A stretch of 32,000 nt of DNA from Nitratidesulfovibrio vulgaris str. Hildenborough (GCF_000195755.1 NC_002937.3:420001-452000), one strand, 5' to 3'. Numbered from the stretch's first letter, positions 7,507 through 31,201 are shown. The notes: generated by a model from the letters alone, not told the origin. Program-made: numbers and translations.

Positions 7507-8424
7507 TTAGGCGGGGGCGCTGTGGATGAAGCGCTCTGCTTCGAGGGCTGCCATGGTCCCGTCTGCCATGGCGGTGGTGAGCTGGCGATATTTCTTCTGG
7601 CGCACGTCTCCTGCTGCGTACACGCCGGAGAGGCTGGTGGCCATGTTCTCGTCGGTCACGATGTAGCCTTGCGCGTCCATGTCGAACTGGCCCCGGAACA
7701 CTTCGGTACCGGGCTTCTGGCCCATGAACACGAAGATGCCGTCGAATTCCCGGGTGAACACTTCGCCGGTGGCGACATCGCGCAGCGTGACAGAGCGCAG
7801 GGTCTCGTCGTAGTCCACGGAGACCACTTCCGTGGAGCGCATGAGCGTGGCGTTGGGGCGGGCGGCAAGGAGGTCTTGCGCCTTCTGGGCGGCGAAGAAG
7901 CGGTCCATCCTCTCGACGAGGGTGAGTTCCGCGATGCCCTGGTCGAGAAGGGCGAGAGATTCGTCGAACCCGCTGTTGCCGCCCCCCACCACGAGCACGC
8001 GCTTGCCGATGTAGGGCGCGCCGTCGCAGATGGCGCAGAAATGCACCTGTTCGCATTCCCCGGCGGCTTCGAGGGGCACCGGCTTGCGTCCGGTGGCGAC
8101 GATGACGGCCTTGGCGGTGTACACTTCGCCATCAGCCTCCACGCGCTTCTCGGGGCCTGTGAGGTCCATGCTGTCGATGCACACGGCCTCTTCGACGGTG
8201 ACGCCGAGATTGTTCACCTGTTCCTGCATGCGTTGTGCGAGTTCCATGCCCCCGATGGACGTGTACGAAGGCATGTTCTCGACGACCTTGGTCCAGTTGA
8301 CGAGCCCGCCGCAGGCATTCTCGTCCAGTATGAGGACGCGCAGGTTGGCGCGTGCGGCGTATATCGCCGACGTCATACCGGCGACGCCTCCCCCGAGGAT
8401 GATGAGATCGAATGCATGACTCAT
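7507..8424 (-). CDS. trxB: Thioredoxin reductase-like flavoprotein (low-Mr TrxR type)
   Basis: 305 aa. FAD motif ILGGGVAGMTSA, redox dithiol CAIC (HFCAICDG), second dinucleotide motif VVGGGNSG. The usual HRRxxxR NADPH motif reads VERMDRF instead. Confidence 0.88.
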   Translation of the reverse strand: MSHAFDLIILGGGVAGMTSAIYAARANLRVLILDENACGGLVNWTKVVENMPSYTSIGGMELAQRMQEQVNNLGVTVEEAVCIDSMDLTGPEKRVEADGEVYTAKAVIVATGRKPVPLEAAGECEQVHFCAICDGAPYIGKRVLVVGGGNSGFDESLALLDQGIAELTLVERMDRFFAAQKAQDLLAARPNATLMRSTEVVSVDYDETLRSVTLRDVATGEVFTREFDGIFVFMGQKPGTEVFRGQFDMDAQGYIVTDENMATSLSGVYAAGDVRQKKYRQLTTAMADGTMAALEAERFIHSAPA

Positions 8425-8442
8425 TGCAACAATTCTCCGGAA

Positions 8443-8757
8443 TTAGATGGACGCGTACAGGGCCTGCAATTCACGCGGGTTCATGATGCCGGAAAAGACC
8501 TTGGCGACCTTGCCGTCCCGGATGAAGACCAGTGTGGGTACGCGCTCGAATCCAAGTTCCTTCATGAGTTCGGGGCGGGCCTCGCTGTCCACGCTGGAGA
8601 TGGCGACCTGGGGCGCTCTGGCACCGAACTTGTCCAGCACCTTTTCCATGTTCTTGCAGTGCGGGCACAGGTTCTTGTGGAAGAAGACGATGGCGTCGGA
8701 AAGCCCTTCGAAATGGGCCATGCCGGCTTCTGTGGTGATGTCCCTTATTGCACTCAT
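8443..8757 (-). CDS. trx: Thioredoxin with atypical CPHC active site
   Basis: 104 aa. The active site C-P-H-C is encoded at 8656-8667 (TGC CCG CAC TGC on the minus strand). cis-Pro region ERVPTLVF. AAGGAG lies 8 nt upstream of the ATG at 8757. Confidence 0.88.
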   Translation of the reverse strand: MSAIRDITTEAGMAHFEGLSDAIVFFHKNLCPHCKNMEKVLDKFGARAPQVAISSVDSEARPELMKELGFERVPTLVFIRDGKVAKVFSGIMNPRELQALYASI

Positions 8758-24437: not shown

Positions 24438-24725
24438 ATGAGCAAGACCCTGACCAAAGCGGAAATAGTCGATGCCATCTACGAGAAGACCGACCGCAAT
24501 CGCGCCGAAGTGAAAGGCGTGGTCGAATCGCTGCTTGGCATCATGAAGCAGGCCATCAAGAAGGACCATGCGCTGCTTATCAGCGGCTTCGGCAAGTTCG
24601 AGGCCTATGACAAGAAGGCGCGCAAGGGCCGCAACCCCCAGACGGACGAGACCATTACCCTGCCTCCGCGCAAGGTGGTGGTGTTCCGTCTCTCCCGCAA
24701 GTTCAGGGCCGAACTCAACGAGTAA
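24438..24725 (+). CDS. HU/IHF-family DNA-binding protein (IHF-like)
   Basis: 95 aa. GFGKFE...RKGRNPQTDETITLPPRKVVVFRLS is the typical beta-arm region. GGAGG lies upstream of the ATG. Confidence 0.9.
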   Translation: MSKTLTKAEIVDAIYEKTDRNRAEVKGVVESLLGIMKQAIKKDHALLISGFGKFEAYDKKARKGRNPQTDETITLPPRKVVVFRLSRKFRAELNE

Positions 24726-24751: not shown

Positions 24752-24797
24752 CAGGACGCCGTTCTCCGTGAGGAGGGCGGCGTCCTGTGATTGTTGG
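24752..24797 (+). terminator. Probable terminator after the HU/IHF gene
   Basis: CAGGACGCCG (24752-24761) pairs with CGGCGTCCTG (24778-24787). The stem extends inward through CTCC/GGAG around a GTGA loop. TGATTGTTGG follows. It starts 27 nt after the stop codon. Confidence 0.55.
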
Positions 24798-25072: not shown

Positions 25073-25804
25073 CTATTCTGCGACGACGAAATCGCCGGGG
25101 AACTCGGAGCGCAGTTGCTGGCGCATCCGCTCGGCTTCACTCAGCGTCGACCACGGGCCCACCTGTACACGCCAGAAGCTGACAAGCTCGGCATAGTAGA
25201 AGCGTGCCTTGAAGCCGCGCTGTTGCATCCGTGCAGAAAGGCGGCGGGCGTTCTCCTGACTGGAGAAGGCTCCTATCTGGACATAGAAGCTGCCGGACAG
25301 GTCGCCATCCTGCATGAGTCCGGGAACGTCACCGACGGTCTCGAGCCTTACGCGTGCCGTGCCGGGGCCTATCATGCCGATGCGGCTTGCCCCGGTGTGC
25401 GTGAGGTCGATGATGCGGTCGCCGACGAAGGGCCCGCGGTCATTGACGCGGACGATGATCTGCTTGCCGTTGGCGAGGTTGGTGACGCGCAGGTTGGTGT
25501 TGAACGGCAGCAGCTTGTGCGCCGCCGTCATGGCGTACATGTCGTAGCGCTCACCGTTGGCGGTCTTCTTGCCGTGGAAGTCGCTCCCGTACCACGAGGC
25601 GACCCCTTCTTCGACGAAGCCATGGGCGGACTTGAGGGGATAGTAGGTCTTGCCGCGTACGGTGTAGGGCTTGGCGCGCGGCCCTGAAGGCTGGCCCTTG
25701 GGATAGGATACACCGGAGCGTGATGAGCCGCACCCCGAGACGAGGCTGGCGGTGCAGAACAGGAGAAGTGAAACGAGAAGAAGGCGCAGGATGGTGTTTG
25801 GCAT
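25073..25804 (-). CDS. rlpA: Rare lipoprotein A (RlpA): DPBB domain plus C-terminal SPOR domain
   Basis: Lipobox LVSGC. DPBB region (ASWYGSDFHGKKTANGERYDMYAMTAAHKLLPFNTNLRVTNL..NDRGPF). C-terminal SPOR-like region (FYVQIGAFSSQENARRL). Confidence 0.9.
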   Translation of the reverse strand: MPNTILRLLLVSLLLFCTASLVSGCGSSRSGVSYPKGQPSGPRAKPYTVRGKTYYPLKSAHGFVEEGVASWYGSDFHGKKTANGERYDMYAMTAAHKLLPFNTNLRVTNLANGKQIIVRVNDRGPFVGDRIIDLTHTGASRIGMIGPGTARVRLETVGDVPGLMQDGDLSGSFYVQIGAFSSQENARRLSARMQQRGFKARFYYAELVSFWRVQVGPWSTLSEAERMRQQLRSEFPGDFVVAE

Positions 25805-25815
25805 CGTTCCTTGAA

Positions 25816-25842
25816 GGGGAGGCCGCCCGTGGCGGCCTCCCC
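25816..25842 (-). terminator. GC-rich perfect hairpin between the HMGL gene and rlpA (terminator or mRNA-stability element)
   Basis: GGGGAGGCCGCC (25816-25827) pairs with GGCGGCCTCCCC (25831-25842). On the minus strand only TT follows, and then the rlpA SD (AAGGAA). Confidence 0.4.
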
Positions 25843-25884
25843 CGGGGTTGAGGTTGACGGGGCGTGGCCCCGCGCAGTGCGGGG

Positions 25885-27711
25885 CTATTCGTCCTCGTCC
25901 TGTGCCACGTCATCCTCGATGGCGTCGGCACGGCGCAGCAGTTGCTCTATCTGGATGTCGGCACCGATGATGCCGGTGATGTTGTCGTGCTCGTCCGTGA
26001 CCGCCGTGGAGACGGTGAGGATGAGCTGCCCTGTGAACTGCGACTGGTACACGTCGGTGATGTGCAGTTCACCGGTCTGCATGGGCCTGATGAACCACTG
26101 GCGGTTGGAGAAGTCGTAGCCGATGGGCAGCTGGTCGTACTTCGCCTGATAGGCCGGGTCGGTGATGGCTGCCGAGAGCAGCTTGCCGCGGTTGTCGGTG
26201 AGGTACAGGTACTGGATGAAGGGGTATTCCTGCACGAACTCGCGCATGCAGGGGTACTTGTCGTCGCCCACGCCCATGATCTGGCATTCCTTGGCCAGCT
26301 TGATGATGAGGCCCGCCGAGAGCTCGCCCGCCATCTTCTTGATCTGGTCGAACTCGGAGCCGAACAGCTCGGGCATGAAGCGGCGCACCAGCGTCTGCAT
26401 CTCCTTGTTGGAGAACGAGGTGTTGCGGCCGTCTTCGTAGGCCTTCATGATCTTGTTGTAGATGTGTCCCACGGCGGGGTGCTTCTTCGACACCTGATTC
26501 TCGACGGGCAGGCCGAGGTACTGGTTGATCCAGTAGGCGACCCCGGCGCGGCCCGACTTGTCGGTGATGATGATGGGCACCGGGCGGTTGAGAATCTTGC
26601 GCGTGTCGAAGATGTTGTAGATTTCCTCGTTCTTGGCGAGGCCGTCCACATGGATGCCGGCGCTGGTGGCGTTGAAGTCCTTGCCGACGAACGGGTAGTT
26701 GTCGGGGATGCGGTAGTCGAGTTCGGTCTCGAAGTAGTGGGCGATTTCCGAGATGACCTGCGTCTCGGCCGCGTCGTCGTCGCCGGTGAGCGAGATGTAT
26801 TCGATGACGAGGGCTTCGAGGGGCGTGTTGCCGGTGCGTTCGCCGAAGCCGAGAAGGGTGCAGTTGACCCCGGCGCATCCGTACATCCACGCCGTGACGC
26901 CGTTGATGAGCACCTTGTGGAAGTCGTTGTGCCCATGCCATTCGAGCCATTCGCCTGGGACGCCGGCCTCGTCTGTGAAGGCGCGCACGATGCGCTGCAC
27001 GGAACGTGGCAGGGTGGCACCCGGATAGGGCACCCCGTAGCCCATGGTGTCGCACAGCCGTATCTTGACCGGCAGGCCGCTGTCCTTGGACATCTCCATG
27101 AGTTTCTGCGCAAAGGGCAGGCAGAAGCCGGGGATGTCGGCGCGGGTGATGTCCTCGAAGTGGCAGCGCGGGATGATGCCCCATTCAAGGGCCTGTCCCA
27201 CCACCTTGAGGTAGTTCTGAAGAGCCTTCTCGCGGTCGAGACCCAGCTTGAGGTAGAGATGGTAGTCCGACACGCTGGTCAGCATCCCCACTTCATCGAA
27301 CTCCATGTCCCGCGCGATCTTGAGGTCGTCGACGTTGGCCCGTATCCAGCCCGTGATGCGCGGGAACTTGTAGCCCTTGGCCCTGCATGCCTCGATGGCC
27401 CGGCGGTCCTTCTGCGAGTACATGAAGAACTCGGAGGCGCGGATGAGCCCGCTACGCCCGCCCAGCTTGTGGAGCAGGTCGTACATATGGGCCATCTGCT
27501 TCACGGTGTACGGCGGGCGGGCCTGTTGGCCGTCGCGGAACGTCGTGTCGGTGATGAACATGGGCTCGGCGGGGCGCGGCATCAGAAAGATGTCGTCGAA
27601 CTCCACGCGGCTTATCTTCGAATAGGGGAAGATGTCGCGATACAGTTCGGGATTGTCTCTGTTCTCAAGCCTTACCCTTGTGGAGGCTCTGTTCAGATGG
27701 AGCAGGGTCAT
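25885..27711 (-). CDS. HMGL-like (2-isopropylmalate / homocitrate / Re-citrate synthase family) enzyme with a C-terminal Cache-like domain
   Basis: 608 aa. Catalytic motifs ITDTTFRDGQQ and EWHGHNDF. The C-terminal ~140 aa carry a Cache_1-like pattern (YLYLTDNRGKLL...DFSNRQWF...VYQSQFTGQLILTVSTAV...ITGIIGADIQIEQL). Its ATG overlaps the upstream stop (ATGA at 27711-27708). Confidence 0.88.
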   Translation of the reverse strand: MTLLHLNRASTRVRLENRDNPELYRDIFPYSKISRVEFDDIFLMPRPAEPMFITDTTFRDGQQARPPYTVKQMAHMYDLLHKLGGRSGLIRASEFFMYSQKDRRAIEACRAKGYKFPRITGWIRANVDDLKIARDMEFDEVGMLTSVSDYHLYLKLGLDREKALQNYLKVVGQALEWGIIPRCHFEDITRADIPGFCLPFAQKLMEMSKDSGLPVKIRLCDTMGYGVPYPGATLPRSVQRIVRAFTDEAGVPGEWLEWHGHNDFHKVLINGVTAWMYGCAGVNCTLLGFGERTGNTPLEALVIEYISLTGDDDAAETQVISEIAHYFETELDYRIPDNYPFVGKDFNATSAGIHVDGLAKNEEIYNIFDTRKILNRPVPIIITDKSGRAGVAYWINQYLGLPVENQVSKKHPAVGHIYNKIMKAYEDGRNTSFSNKEMQTLVRRFMPELFGSEFDQIKKMAGELSAGLIIKLAKECQIMGVGDDKYPCMREFVQEYPFIQYLYLTDNRGKLLSAAITDPAYQAKYDQLPIGYDFSNRQWFIRPMQTGELHITDVYQSQFTGQLILTVSTAVTDEHDNITGIIGADIQIEQLLRRADAIEDDVAQDEDE

Positions 27712-28496
27712 GGCGTGGTCGCCCTCCTTGAGGATGTGGGGTGGGACATCTGTGCGACGGCGTTGCGGAGTGCGAGGGCCTCGGGGCAGTCCGGGCGCAG
27801 CGTCTCGGCTTCGTCGATGGCACGCAGGGCCTCGTCGGGGCGGCCTCCTTCAAGCAGCGCCTCGGCTGCCTGAACGTACAGAAGTTCGGGCCTGTCGCCG
27901 TACAGCGCGGCTACGAGGCGGGGGTGGTCGTCGCCGAACACGTCGCGCACAAGACCTGCGCGGTCATGCAGAAGACGGGCCAGAAGCCTGTTGTCGCCGT
28001 GTGTGGCGAAATACAGGCACAGCAGCCTGCGGCTGCTGGCGAGAATATAGCGTATACGGCGAATCTCGCGGTCCATGCTCTCGCGGGTCTGCGCCAGCAT
28101 GGAGGCGAGGGGTTCGACGATGGCGAGCAACTCCTCGTCCATGAGCCTGCCCTGAAGGGCACGGTACTGCGGGGCGTAGTGCTGGTGCTGGTAGGCGTCT
28201 TCCTTGAGCTTGATGCACTCGTGGAAGACATAGCCGATGGCCCAGTCCAGCATGAGCGCCACGGGGCTGGCATGCGGGTCGCTGCGGAACAGGTGATGTG
28301 CCGTGTCCTTGAGGCGCCAGAGAAGCCCCTTGTTGACGGCTTCGCCAAGCAGGTCGCGCATGACGGGAAACGACACCGCGCCGGAGGCTTCGAAACGCTC
28401 GAACTGTGCTTCGAGGACGGCGCACGCCATGCAGTAGTCGCGCATGACGTCACGCGCGAATTCGGAAAGGTTGGCCTGTACCCAGCGTCTCGACAT
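27708..28496 (-). CDS. Hypothetical protein, predicted helical with a TPR-like C-terminus
   Basis: 262 aa. GGGAG lies ~9 nt upstream of the ATG at 28496. The stop overlaps the HMGL start codon. I recognise no motif. Confidence 0.65.
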   Translation of the reverse strand: MSRRWVQANLSEFARDVMRDYCMACAVLEAQFERFEASGAVSFPVMRDLLGEAVNKGLLWRLKDTAHHLFRSDPHASPVALMLDWAIGYVFHECIKLKEDAYQHQHYAPQYRALQGRLMDEELLAIVEPLASMLAQTRESMDREIRRIRYILASSRRLLCLYFATHGDNRLLARLLHDRAGLVRDVFGDDHPRLVAALYGDRPELLYVQAAEALLEGGRPDEALRAIDEAETLRPDCPEALALRNAVAQMSHPTSSRRATTP

Positions 28497-28580
28497 GGTG
28501 CGTCACTCCCGGAAGATGCGCTTATAGCCGTTTTTTGCGTAGACCGGAAGCGGGCGGGCGAATGTGCGGGGCGGGGCCGT

Positions 28581-29132
28581 CTACAGCAGGCAGACCGACT
28601 CGTCGCAGCATCGCTTGAGAAATTCGCTGTAGGCGTAAAGAATCCGCTGCTCTGCGGCGCGTCGCGTATCGTCCATGGGAGGGACGGGATGCGCTGCGGC
28701 AAGGTGGTCGATGTCGGCGTGCCGTGGCAGCGCACGCATGCCCGAGGCCAGTTGCGTGCCATCGGCCACGGCATAGAGGGCAGCGTCGCGCAGGTCGGAC
28801 ACCGCCACCAGCGGTGCGGGCCCTCCGGTCATGAGGCGTGCTGCGGCCAGGCTTTCGCGGGCGAAGGTGTTGACCTGACCGGGGCAGAAGAAGACCAGCA
28901 TGAGAGGGCTGCCGTCAGGGGCTGTCACGGTCAGGTCGACCGTACGGCAGTATTCCCCGTCGTCGACGGGAAACCGCACGGCAAGGCGCGGCACGACCCT
29001 CTCGGCGGGATACCCGAGTCCTTCGACCAGCAGCCGCGCAAGGGCCTGCCGCAGGTCCTCGTAGGTCGTGGCCTCGATGGATTCTCCGGTGAGGTAGTCG
29101 CGAAGCGTCTCGCCAAGGCTCGTCTCGTGCAT
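28581..29132 (-). CDS. HsdR_N-like (type I restriction enzyme R N-terminal / PD-(D/E)XK fold) domain protein, apparently catalytically degenerate
   Basis: The ATG at 29132 is preceded by GAAGGAGA. The pattern YEDLRQALARLLVEGLGYPAERVVPRLAVRF...RTVDLTV...PLMLVFFCPG matches the HSDR_N consensus layout, but the ExK position reads F-F-C. The C-terminus is RCCDESVCLL. The track ORF extends to 29294. Confidence 0.55.
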   Translation of the reverse strand: MHETSLGETLRDYLTGESIEATTYEDLRQALARLLVEGLGYPAERVVPRLAVRFPVDDGEYCRTVDLTVTAPDGSPLMLVFFCPGQVNTFARESLAAARLMTGGPAPLVAVSDLRDAALYAVADGTQLASGMRALPRHADIDHLAAAHPVPPMDDTRRAAEQRILYAYSEFLKRCCDESVCLL

Positions 29133-29149
29133 GGGGTCTCCTTCGCGTG

Positions 29150-29416
29150 CTAGAGGCTGCCGGCCTCCTTGAGCAGGGCGCGTGCCACGGCCTCGTCGTA
29201 CAGGAGCATGGGGTCTGTCTCGCGGCCCATGTCGCGGTACATGGCGGCGGCGTTGCGGATGACTTCGAGCGGAATCCAGCCGTGCTTGTCCCATACCTCG
29301 GCATGGTCGGCCTGCCAGAGTCTGAATTCGATGGCGCCGTCTGTCACGCGCACGTAGACACGGGCGCGGCGGTTGGTGGGGTCGGGGTAGTAGTAGAGGC
29401 CTCGTTCGTCCTGCAT
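29150..29416 (-). CDS. Small hypothetical protein (88 aa)
   Basis: The ATG at 29416 has GGAG 6 nt upstream (MQDERGLYYYPDPTNRRARVYVRV...). It is followed 17 nt later by the next gene. The track ORF extends to 29701, but the upstream part looks non-coding. Confidence 0.5.
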   Translation of the reverse strand: MQDERGLYYYPDPTNRRARVYVRVTDGAIEFRLWQADHAEVWDKHGWIPLEVIRNAAAMYRDMGRETDPMLLYDEAVARALLKEAGSL

Positions 29417-29694
29417 GGTCGCTCCATCTGGGAAATTACCGGAAGAACCGGTGACAGGTGGGAATCTGCCCGCTTCGCGGTGTATCGTCAACAGGGGGAG
29501 GGCGTTCGGGGTGCACAGGGCCGTGAAGCGTTTTAAGGATACATGGGTTGATCGGGCGGGGTGTTGTCTAATCCGTCTGCTTGGGATAGGGTGCCAGAAG
29601 TTGCATCGTCCATGCTTCCCTCTTGTCCGGAGGGGAACATGCGCCATGATGCACTGATGACAGGGGTTGCAGCCGTGCCGGAAGGCCGCCGCAC

Positions 29695-29723
29695 TTGACA
29701 AGGTGGCGGAATCATTCTAGCAA
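29695..29723 (+). promoter_or_regulatory. Candidate sigma70-type promoter for dsrAB
   Basis: Perfect -35 TTGACA (29695-29700), a 17-nt spacer, then a weak -10 TAGCAA (29718-23). This implies a leader of ~155 nt before the dsrA ATG. Confidence 0.35.
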
Positions 29724-29733
29724 TGGCCCTACT

Positions 29734-29751
29734 TTGTCCAAAAAATCACGA
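29734..29751. promoter_or_regulatory. Degenerate CRP/Rex-like palindrome TTGTCC-N6-TCACGA in the dsrA leader
   Basis: Read directly. It matches 9 of 12 positions of TTGTGA-N6-TCACAA and lies just downstream of the candidate promoter. Confidence 0.3.
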
Positions 29752-29887
29752 GTTTTTCGCGCGCCAGGGCCGCACCGACCGAAGTCCGGGCCGCGAGAAA
29801 GCAGAAAGCCCCGTGCTGCCATTCGGCAGGACGGGCGCGCCAACGTCGGTAGTGAGACTACAACCAAACCAATGTGGAGGTAAGGCA

Positions 29888-31201
29888 ATGGCGAAACATG
29901 CAACTCCCAAGTTGGACCAGCTCGAGTCCGGGCCCTGGCCCAGCTTCGTGTCCGACATCAAGCAGGAGGCTGCGTACCGGGCGGCCAACCCGAAGGGGCT
30001 GGACTACCAGGTACCCGTCGACTGTCCGGAAGACCTGCTCGGCGTTCTCGAGCTGTCCTACGATGAGGGTGAAACCCACTGGAAGCACGGCGGCATCGTC
30101 GGCGTGTTCGGTTACGGCGGCGGCGTCATCGGCCGTTACTGTGACCAGCCCGAAAAGTTCCCCGGCGTGGCGCACTTCCATACCGTGCGCGTGGCCCAGC
30201 CTTCCGGCAAGTACTACTCTGCCGACTACCTGCGCCAGCTGTGCGACATCTGGGACCTGCGCGGTTCCGGTCTGACCAACATGCACGGCTCCACGGGTGA
30301 CATCGTTCTCCTCGGCACGCAGACCCCCCAGCTCGAAGAAATCTTCTTCGAACTGACCCACAACCTGAACACCGACCTTGGTGGTTCCGGTTCGAACCTG
30401 CGTACCCCTGAATCGTGCCTCGGCAAGTCGCGTTGCGAATTCGCCTGCTACGACTCTCAGGCCGCCTGCTACGAACTGACCATGGAATACCAGGACGAAC
30501 TGCACCGTCCGGCGTTCCCCTACAAGTTCAAGTTCAAGTTCGACGCCTGCCCCAACGGCTGCGTGGCCTCCATCGCCCGTTCCGACTTCTCGGTCATCGG
30601 TACCTGGAAGGACGACATCAAGATCGACGCCGAAGCCGTCAAGGCCTACGTGGCCGGTGAGTTCAAGCCCAACGCCGGTGCCCACTCCGGTCGTGACTGG
30701 GGCAAGTTCGACATCGAAGCCGAAGTCGTCAATCGCTGCCCCTCCAAGTGCATGAAGTGGGACGGTTCCAAGCTGTCGATCGACAACAAGGAATGCGTCC
30801 GTTGCATGCACTGCATCAACACCATGCCCCGCGCCCTGCACATCGGCGACGAGCGTGGCGCCTCCATCCTCTGCGGTGCGAAGGCTCCCATCCTCGACGG
30901 TGCCCAGATGGGCTCTCTGCTGGTTCCCTTCGTCGCCGCCGAAGAGCCCTTCGACGAGATCAAGGAAGTCGTCGAGAAGATCTGGGACTGGTGGATGGAA
31001 GAAGGCAAGAACCGCGAGCGCCTCGGCGAGACCATGAAGCGCCTCAGCTTCCAGAAGCTGCTCGAAGTGACCGAAATCGCTCCGGTGCCCCAGCATGTCA
31101 AGGAACCCCGCACCAACCCGTACATCTTCTTCAAGGAAGAAGAAGTACCTGGTGGCTGGGATCGCGACATCACGGAATACCGCAAGAGACACCTGAGATA
31201 A
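29888..31201 (+). CDS. dsrA: Dissimilatory sulfite reductase alpha subunit
   Basis: 437 aa beginning MAKHATPKLDQLESGPWPSFVSDIK, with GGAGGTAAGG upstream. Siroheme/FeS Cys motifs and a ferredoxin-like insert (CPSKCMKW...CVRCMHCIN). I recognise it as Desulfovibrio DsrA. Confidence 0.97.
   Translation: MAKHATPKLDQLESGPWPSFVSDIKQEAAYRAANPKGLDYQVPVDCPEDLLGVLELSYDEGETHWKHGGIVGVFGYGGGVIGRYCDQPEKFPGVAHFHTVRVAQPSGKYYSADYLRQLCDIWDLRGSGLTNMHGSTGDIVLLGTQTPQLEEIFFELTHNLNTDLGGSGSNLRTPESCLGKSRCEFACYDSQAACYELTMEYQDELHRPAFPYKFKFKFDACPNGCVASIARSDFSVIGTWKDDIKIDAEAVKAYVAGEFKPNAGAHSGRDWGKFDIEAEVVNRCPSKCMKWDGSKLSIDNKECVRCMHCINTMPRALHIGDERGASILCGAKAPILDGAQMGSLLVPFVAAEEPFDEIKEVVEKIWDWWMEEGKNRERLGETMKRLSFQKLLEVTEIAPVPQHVKEPRTNPYIFFKEEEVPGGWDRDITEYRKRHLR

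Follow-up and report, generated by a model that had tools for sequence, protein, structure and literature searches.

Introduction

In the enzymes LeuA and CimA a regulatory domain is attached C-terminally to the catalytic one. A citrate synthase, aconitase and isocitrate dehydrogenase together give 2-oxoglutarate from acetyl-CoA and oxaloacetate. Desulfovibrio vulgaris has been cited as a user of Re-citrate synthase with an incomplete tricarboxylic acid (TCA) cycle (PMC12016533). The present analysis concerns four minus-strand genes, DVU_0398 to DVU_0401, at positions 25,885 to 29,416 of a 32,000-nucleotide stretch of the genome of Nitratidesulfovibrio vulgaris str. Hildenborough (NC_002937.3:420001-452000), hereafter the window, which lie head-to-head with the dissimilatory sulfite reductase gene dsrA. 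An earlier sequence-only reading had taken them for an uncharacterised four-gene operon corresponding to no known pathway. The locus is a known Re-citrate synthase gene, DVU_0398, preceded by three conserved orphan genes, and is not a novel conserved system. It is likely a lineage-specific row of four independent genes and not a dedicated four-part system. The products of DVU_0401, DVU_0400 and DVU_0399 are referred to below by their lengths of 88, 183 and 262 amino acids (aa), and their genes as P1, P2 and P3, respectively, where gene orders are written out.

Results

DVU_0398 and the Re-citrate synthases

DVU_0398 was compared with the characterised Re-citrate synthase sequences collected in Table S1 of PMC12016533. 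It is 51% identical to SYN_02536 of Syntrophus aciditrophicus over 602 aligned aa, from residue 6 to residue 600 and with the Cache-like tail included, and 46% identical to CKL_0973 of Clostridium kluyveri over 447 aa, and only 28% identical to HM1_2993 of the second Re-citrate synthase lineage. The HMGL-like domain was matched by Pfam with an E-value of 3.4e-30, and the metal-ligand motifs are kept, with D60 in DTTFRDGQQ and H259 and H261 in HGHND aligning with both SYN_02536 and CKL_0973. Because the identity to the characterised SYN_02536 extends over the full length of the protein, tail included, DVU_0398 is assigned as a Re-citrate synthase (EC 2.3.3.3) of the C. kluyveri/Syntrophus type; enzyme and pathway are both already known. 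Assignment as a homocitrate or an isopropylmalate synthase was rejected, the models of these enzymes and of citramalate synthase scoring far under the cut-offs (for nifV, 135 bits against 463). The nearest relatives of DVU_0398 in the PDB are homocitrate, isopropylmalate and citramalate synthases with E-values of 1e-20 or worse.

An HMGL-family enzyme with a Cache-like tail at 27711-25885, as proposed by the sequence-only reading, was recovered with the Pfam HMGL-like and dCache_1/MCP-like PDC models. The accompanying statement that a C-C bond-forming enzyme with a sensor domain fits no known pathway does not hold, the enzyme being assigned as a Re-citrate synthase, which feeds the oxidative arm of the TCA cycle that leads to 2-oxoglutarate. 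Nor is the tail a novelty of Desulfovibrio; judged from the alignments it is inherited with the enzyme, the characterised Syntrophus enzyme having the same domain.

The synthase family is 72-87% identical across the Desulfovibrionaceae, Bilophila wadsworthia included. In one metagenome-assembled genome (MAG L173, 1654-8537) the gene directly after a 73%-identical homologue encodes isocitrate dehydrogenase, and an aconitase gene is located 3 kb away on the opposite strand, the three forming a compact cluster of the oxidative TCA branch; genes of this TCA branch do not adjoin the synthase gene in the window, in Bilophila or in D. litoralis. Public names of the family (members P0250, P0281, P0249 and P0344) are inconsistent and mostly wrong; examples are histone-lysine N-methyltransferase, triose-phosphate isomerase, cache domain-containing protein and HMGL-like domain protein.

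In published transposon sequencing data the insertion density of DVU0398 (genome position 445885-447711) was 0.08 of that of the median gene in the wild type and 0.19 in strain JW710, and the gene was called non-essential on rich medium despite this low density. We infer that the low density fits an important biosynthetic enzyme whose product is partly supplied by yeast extract.

Gene order across relatives

Gene order was compared in about 170 related loci, anchored on each of the four proteins in turn. With the 183-aa protein, 147 relatives were obtained from species-representative genomes, and the 80 loci kept were almost all labelled Desulfovibrionales. An all-versus-all clustering of raw open reading frames (ORFs) was cluttered by G+C-rich shadow ORFs and was used only for naming recurrent neighbours.

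The full order of synthase, 262-aa, 183-aa and 88-aa gene, with dsrA divergent from the last, was found in six of the approximately 170 loci (L002, L003, L004, L076, L088 and L144), the first four of which are also the only such loci among the 80 anchored on the 183-aa gene. Genera with the full arrangement include Nitratidesulfovibrio and Oleidesulfovibrio, the latter with O. alaskensis (L088). In other Desulfovibrionales that retain them, each pair of the four genes is found separated. The four genes are therefore not a conserved unit, since the full order is confined to a few related genera and each adjacency is broken elsewhere. O. alaskensis has an extra 66-aa ORF between the HsdR_N-like and 262-aa genes (L088:5977-6177), which has no counterpart in the window.

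The commonest pattern in metagenomes, obtained with the 88-aa anchor from human-gut Desulfovibrionaceae, is dsrA followed divergently by the 88-aa gene, a gap of 8-29 nucleotides (nt), 11 nt in gut Desulfovibrio loci, the 262-aa gene and RlpA, with neither the 183-aa gene nor the synthase gene. In Halodesulfovibrio the order is dsrDBA, divergent from an 85-aa gene, then the 262-aa gene, synthase, RlpA, HU and HIT, again lacking the 183-aa gene. Desulfohalovibrio (L169) has TetR, 262-aa gene, LysM, RlpA, HU and HIT, and the RlpA, HU, HIT backbone recurs in L083, L088 and the gut loci. The 262-aa gene stands alone in Desulfonatronum and D. inopinatus (L085, L171). In Solidesulfovibrio (L081:3501-6771; L082) it starts 4 nt after a gene for a LonC-like (AAA_32/Lon_C) protease, which suggests a possible partner of the 262-aa protein other than the synthase.

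The four genes might nevertheless be a true functional module, in which the small proteins would serve the Re-citrate synthase as dedicated accessory factors, for example by loading its metal, protecting this oxygen-sensitive enzyme or regulating it, and the 262-aa protein would complex with the synthase by translational coupling. The genes share a strand, only 17 nt separate the first two, an ATGA overlap with an internal Shine-Dalgarno (SD) sequence joins the last two, and the order is maintained in Nitratidesulfovibrio, Oleidesulfovibrio and several MAGs. The 262-aa and synthase genes also adjoin in Halodesulfovibrio and Desulfobaculum, and invariant His, Glu and Asp residues in the 262-aa protein suggest a defined site. 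In Bilophila, D. litoralis and MAG L173, however, the synthase gene is accompanied by neither the 262-aa gene nor the other two small genes, and the 262-aa gene lacks an accompanying synthase gene in gut Desulfovibrio, Solidesulfovibrio, Desulfonatronum, Desulfohalovibrio and D. inopinatus. All named relatives of the 262-aa protein are from Desulfovibrionales, but it is Syntrophus, an unrelated organism at which no search with the 262-aa protein was aimed, that supplied the characterised enzyme with the tail. The ATGA overlap is not conserved either, gaps of 54 nt (L144), 65 nt (L002) and 168 nt (Desulfobaculum, L170, where the 262-aa gene precedes the synthase gene and dsrA is not nearby) replacing it elsewhere. 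The fixed stoichiometry that the sequence-only reading had drawn from the overlap is weakened by these gaps, and a module of this kind is considered quite unlikely.

The best-supported statement about the three small proteins is a negative one: none of them has the synthase, or another of the three, as an obligate partner. The description as an uncharacterised operon was correct as far as co-orientation, tight spacing and the uncharacterised small genes are concerned, and failed as to a conserved unit. The question whether the genes always accompany each other across Desulfovibrionales received a mostly negative answer, the genes being largely apart, with synteny reaching beyond this strain in a few genera. 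An invariable position next to dsrAB was found for none of them; only the 88-aa gene is persistently located there.

Locus layout and transcription signals

The ORFs and other features of the locus are listed in Table 1. The four minus-strand ORFs correspond to DVU_0398 to DVU_0401, and the coordinates, lengths and spacings in the sequence-only reading were accurate, the dsrA spacer being 1 bp longer than the 470 bp claimed. The ORFs are taken as genuine and not as chance ORFs because each has relatives at 45-90% identity, for the small proteins 261 (183-aa), 387 (262-aa) and 76 (88-aa). An Rfam scan of the whole window gave no match, and in the literature the locus tags DVU0398-DVU0401 and Dde_0520-Dde_0525 yielded nothing beyond list mentions in proteomics tables.

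Table 1. Position and assignment of genes, domains and other features at the DVU_0398-DVU_0401 locus (window coordinates).
Feature	Position	Strand	Description
DVU_0398	25885..27711	-	608 aa; exact match AAS94881; assigned as Re-citrate synthase
DVU_0398 HMGL-like/DRE-TIM catalytic domain	26800-27555 (aa 53-304)	-	Pfam
DVU_0398 C-terminal PDC/Cache-like domain	25933-26265 (aa 483-593)	-	Pfam dCache_1/MCP-like PDC
DVU_0399	27708..28496	-	262 aa, all-helical (predicted); exact match AAS94882
DVU_0400	28581..29132	-	183 aa, HsdR_N-like PD-(D/E)XK fold (predicted); exact match AAS94883
DVU_0401, short form	29150..29416	-	88 aa; exact match ABM29549 and ADP85534; divergent from dsrA
DVU_0401-dsrA spacer	29417..29887	.	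471 bp
dsrA (DVU_0402)	29888..31201	+	Dissimilatory sulfite reductase alpha subunit; TIGR02064 693 bits; exact match AAS94885
rlpA-like lipoprotein gene	25073..25804	-	DPBB_1 + SPOR (Pfam, NCBIfam); downstream of DVU_0398, same strand
Hairpin 3' of DVU_0398	25815..25843	-	13-bp G+C stem between DVU_0398 stop and rlpA start

An SD-like sequence precedes all four start codons. The 17-nt gap between DVU_0401 and DVU_0400 contains AAGGAG, and DVU_0399 and DVU_0398 overlap as gccATGAcc with AAGGAGG upstream, so that the strong SD and the ATGA overlap reported earlier can both be read directly. For the 84-nt spacer preceding DVU_0399, the predicted folding is no stronger than for its shuffles. The 91-nt segment 25800-25890 on the minus strand, which contains the perfect 13-bp hairpin located in the 80-nt spacer after DVU_0398, folds with -50.2 kcal/mol (z = -4.16), and none of 200 shuffles folded as well. 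This hairpin is likely the 3' end of the transcription unit. A second, 7-bp hairpin at 25867-25885 overlaps the DVU_0398 stop codon. Since the genes are co-oriented and tightly spaced, and no structured spacer is met before the strong final hairpin, a single transcript from DVU_0401 to DVU_0398 is plausible in Hildenborough. Further downstream, a terminator-like hairpin with a 16-bp stem (24752-24787, plus strand) is found directly after a gene of the HU family (24438-24725) and before the convergent rlpA.

The 88-aa protein and the dsrA spacer

For DVU_0401 the GenBank entry of Hildenborough (AAS94884) gives 183 aa from a TTG at 29701, whereas the protein has 88 aa in strains DP4 and RCH1. 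About 25 homologues from related loci and 21 database relatives have 79-99 aa and start with M-x-D-x-x-G-x-Y-Y (alignment A3). The extension of the long form (29417-29701, minus strand) overlaps a block of the dsrA spacer that is conserved and resembles a promoter. The 183-aa form was rejected, as the lengths and starts of the homologues together with DP4 and RCH1 favour the ATG at 29416; the GenBank form is almost certainly too long and the 88-aa start correct. An exhaustive HMMER search of 1.84 billion representatives with the 88-aa protein gave 76 matches, about 55 of them small proteins and the remainder long repetitive proteins with patchy alignment. Neither a Pfam nor a PDB relative of it was found. 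DVU0401 is in the lists of detected proteins from two proteomic studies, and its product is on this account made.

The 471-bp spacer aligns poorly between genera except for the dsrA ribosome-binding site and a block at approximately 29693-29760, as judged from 18 spacers. Along the plus strand the block has TTGACA (29695-29700), followed by TTCTAG and then TACTTTGTCCAAAAAATCACGAG, and along the minus strand TGGACA-N15-TAGAAT. A 23-mer of it is exact in seven loci, its core is unique within the window, and promoter-like and hairpin-like matches coincide with the block. It is a probable promoter of dsrA and/or DVU_0401, and could serve either or both because promoter-like elements are readable on both strands. 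A putative operator, TTGTCC-N6-TCAC, is possible at about 140-190 nt upstream of the dsrA ATG.

When the 88-aa proteins were collapsed at approximately 90% identity, 52 lineages were obtained, of which 43 had enough flanking sequence to be informative. The immediate divergent neighbour was dsrA in 30 of these 43; in 11 lineages dsrA was not found within at least 1.5 kb, and in the last two it was 7 kb away. Genes upstream of the dsrA-less 88-aa genes were paaK-like or unrelated.

These data bear on another explanation, in which the 88-aa protein, perhaps together with the 262-aa protein, whose gene is tightly linked to its own, would be a sulfite-reduction accessory specific to the Desulfovibrionaceae, acting in control of dsrAB expression from the shared divergent promoter region or in maturation or assembly of DsrAB. 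The adjacency to dsrA in 30 of 43 lineages is held though the other flank varies (262-aa gene, 183-aa gene on the same strand, 183-aa gene convergent, or none of these). Consistent with the idea are also the conservation of the spacer block across genera, the 8-29 nt that separate the 88-aa and 262-aa genes in many lineages, and the detection of DVU0401 by proteomics. Yet the 13 lineages with dsrA distant or not found speak against it, the conserved block may just be the dsrA promoter, the 88-aa protein has no fold or family match, and the association could equal inherited gene order within one family. Such a role is judged unlikely; were it true, the helical fold of DVU_0399 would be new and would hold a conserved site of His, Glu and Asp. 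As for the link between carbon status and dissimilatory sulfur metabolism that the sequence-only reading had suggested from the position of the genes, nothing beyond that position ties the synthase to dsrAB.

The 262-aa helical protein

Every named source of the 387 relatives of the 262-aa protein belongs to Desulfovibrionales, to which the family appears restricted in the databases searched. Among 24 diverse members (alignment A2) the invariant positions are NKGLLWRLKD, H67, W85, Y89, H92, K96, E99, D100, T137, S140, R143, E144 and R147. The AlphaFold2 model of DVU_0399 has 11 helices with a predicted local distance difference test (pLDDT) score of 92.9, and the PDB holds no significant structural neighbour of this model, the best having an E-value of 0.09 and a TM score of 0.25. 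Profile searches with DVU_0399 gave no match. In the weakly TPR-like C-terminus a single TPR motif at residues 206-242 remained sub-threshold, with at best 22.5 bits against a cut-off of 23.5, and any TPR model at all was matched by only 3 of the 24 family members. A tandem-TPR protein was rejected as a candidate, the motif being sub-threshold and the fold match to TPR proteins lacking a significant E-value.

Searches with the three small proteins against PDB sequences and profiles returned noise only. The earlier view that the 88-aa and 262-aa proteins carry no recognisable motif was borne out, with no Pfam match for the former and the sub-threshold TPR for the latter, and profile and fold searches place none of the small proteins in a characterised family, the 183-aa protein having an HSDR_N_2 fold call only.

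The 183-aa HsdR_N-like protein

The Pfam family HSDR_N_2 (PF13588) matches DVU_0400 with an E-value of 5.3e-8 and 33.4 bits against a cut-off of 25. The AlphaFold2 model (pLDDT 86) has an alpha-beta-beta-beta-alpha-beta core, and the top Foldseek matches to it are BsaXI, 3ijm and DrdV with a probability of 1.0, E-values of about 1e-3 and TM scores of 0.36-0.49. A restriction-endonuclease-like core fold is accordingly predicted for DVU_0400 by the model. In a 16-member alignment of the family (A1) D66 is invariant, and the E-x-K positions at the end of the third core strand are occupied by F81-F82-C83 in DVU_0400 and by L/I/F/D, F and C/V/G/A in the family. The E-x-K part of the catalytic D...(D/E)-x-K triad is missing throughout these 16 members. 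The C-terminus CCDESVCLL is Cys-rich and reads as CCx4C. The HsdR_N-like fold with F-F-C at the ExK positions and a terminal CCx4C, as the sequence-only reading had it, was thereby confirmed by Pfam, alignment and sequence.

Around this gene the 80 loci differ widely. In approximately 57 of them none of the other three genes or dsrA is present within 8 kb; in about 12 the gene is convergent with the 88-aa gene, and in three it follows the 88-aa gene beside dsrA with the other two genes missing. Recurrent neighbours are nuo, glgA, dynamin-like GTPase, dsrA and 88-aa genes. The gene is located directly after a nuoN-like gene in about 10 loci, many labelled Pseudodesulfovibrio, and beside a dynamin-like GTPase gene in Solidesulfovibrio. 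In the nuoN group (L027, L041, L042, L057, L063, L067, L071, L074, L077 and L078, approximately 7800-8550) the homologue follows the last antiporter-like (nuoN-type) gene of the nuo operon at a distance of 100-450 nt and in the same orientation. In Desulfohalobiaceae (L039, L045, L050, L058, L066, L072 and L075) it comes 6-140 nt after a glycogen synthase-like (glgA-like) gene.

From the restriction-type fold one could suppose that the locus of the HsdR_N-like protein is a decayed restriction-modification system or some other system of anti-phage defence. In addition to the HSDR_N_2 match and the restriction enzymes BsaXI and DrdV among the structural neighbours, the N-terminus of NCBIfam MADS2 was matched by DVU_0400 with an E-value of 0.008, far under the cut-off. 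PADLOC, however, gave no match to any of the three small proteins, E-x-K is missing across the family, and methylase, specificity and helicase genes were not recurrent among the neighbours in the 80 loci. Because these loci are almost all labelled Desulfovibrionales and the closest protein matches of DVU_0400 are at least 49% identical, the 183-aa family behaves as a vertically inherited core gene of Desulfovibrionales and not as a mobile defence gene. A defence or restriction role was rejected on these grounds and is considered extremely improbable.

Discussion

A decaying ancestral gene order around a housekeeping enzyme is the most likely explanation of the locus. DVU_0398 would make citrate from acetyl-CoA and oxaloacetate by a Claisen condensation of the DRE-TIM/HMGL type, and this citrate would feed the oxidative branch of the incomplete TCA cycle leading to 2-oxoglutarate and glutamate synthesis. 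DVU_0399, DVU_0400 and DVU_0401 would be three conserved families, apparently confined to Desulfovibrionales. In Hildenborough a promoter in the spacer between dsrA and DVU_0401 probably drives all four genes as one transcription unit, and this transcript would terminate at the hairpin downstream of DVU_0398. The arrangement of the four genes is probably the remnant of an ancestral order of the Desulfovibrionaceae, with dsrA divergent from P1 ... P3 ... RlpA and HU and HIT beyond, which would have broken up piece by piece. Its least fixed members are the 183-aa gene and the synthase, present in some lineages and absent in others, and the head-to-head position of the 88-aa gene and dsrA is the sole persistent junction.

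Several points weigh against this explanation. At least three named genera and MAGs keep the four-gene synteny, which is more than a single-strain accident. The 262-aa and synthase genes adjoin away from dsrA in Desulfobaculum, the 88-aa and 262-aa genes are as close as 8-29 nt in many gut lineages, and some pairwise functional links among the four genes may exist. The sampling of loci was biased by the anchor proteins, and many of the metagenome loci are redundant. By analogy only, with the C-terminal regulatory domains of LeuA and CimA, the Cache-like tail of DVU_0398 may have a regulatory role, as a cytoplasmic allosteric effector-binding module.

The practical gain of the analysis is annotation. 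DVU_0398 and hundreds of near-identical relatives, those of the gut pathobiont Bilophila included, should be named Re-citrate synthase, and the start codon of the Hildenborough DVU_0401 should be moved to give 88 aa. The idea of a dedicated system coupling carbon status to sulfite reduction is removed as unsupported. Of interest are three well-conserved and apparently Desulfovibrionales-restricted families, among which the 88-aa gene is persistently head-to-head with dsrA and the 262-aa protein has a structurally unmatched model. The 88-aa and 262-aa proteins could be studied at little cost in a model organism for which mutant libraries exist.

Comparison with known systems

DVU_0400 has in common with the N-terminal domain of HsdR (PF13588) a profile score above the cut-off and the predicted core. 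It differs from HsdR in being a stand-alone protein of 183 aa with F-F-C in place of E-x-K and a Cys-rich tail, and in having no helicase, methylase or specificity partner genes.

At the dsrABD(N) cluster of Desulfovibrionaceae, dsrA often has the 88-aa gene directly beside it in divergent orientation, and in relatives dsrB, dsrD and a CbiA/GATase_3 gene, presumably dsrN, are found downstream of dsrA. None of DVU_0398-DVU_0401 is a described dsr gene, however; the adjacency of the 88-aa gene and dsrA is missing in about a quarter of the lineages, and the synthase, HsdR_N-like and 262-aa genes are often located outside the cluster.

With LeuA, CimA and NifV/HCS of the DRE-TIM metallolyase superfamily DVU_0398 has the HMGL-like barrel and the post-barrel subdomain in common. 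Its design resembles the catalytic and C-terminal regulatory parts of LeuA and CimA, although the tail is of the Cache/PDC fold and not of the LeuA type. The closest likeness is to the Re-citrate synthases. CKL_0973 of C. kluyveri is without the approximately 150-aa tail of DVU_0398, which was compared by sequence alone; SYN_02536 and CKL_0973 (EC 2.3.3.3) both share DTTFRDGQQ and HGHND with DVU_0398, and SYN_02536 shares the tail too.

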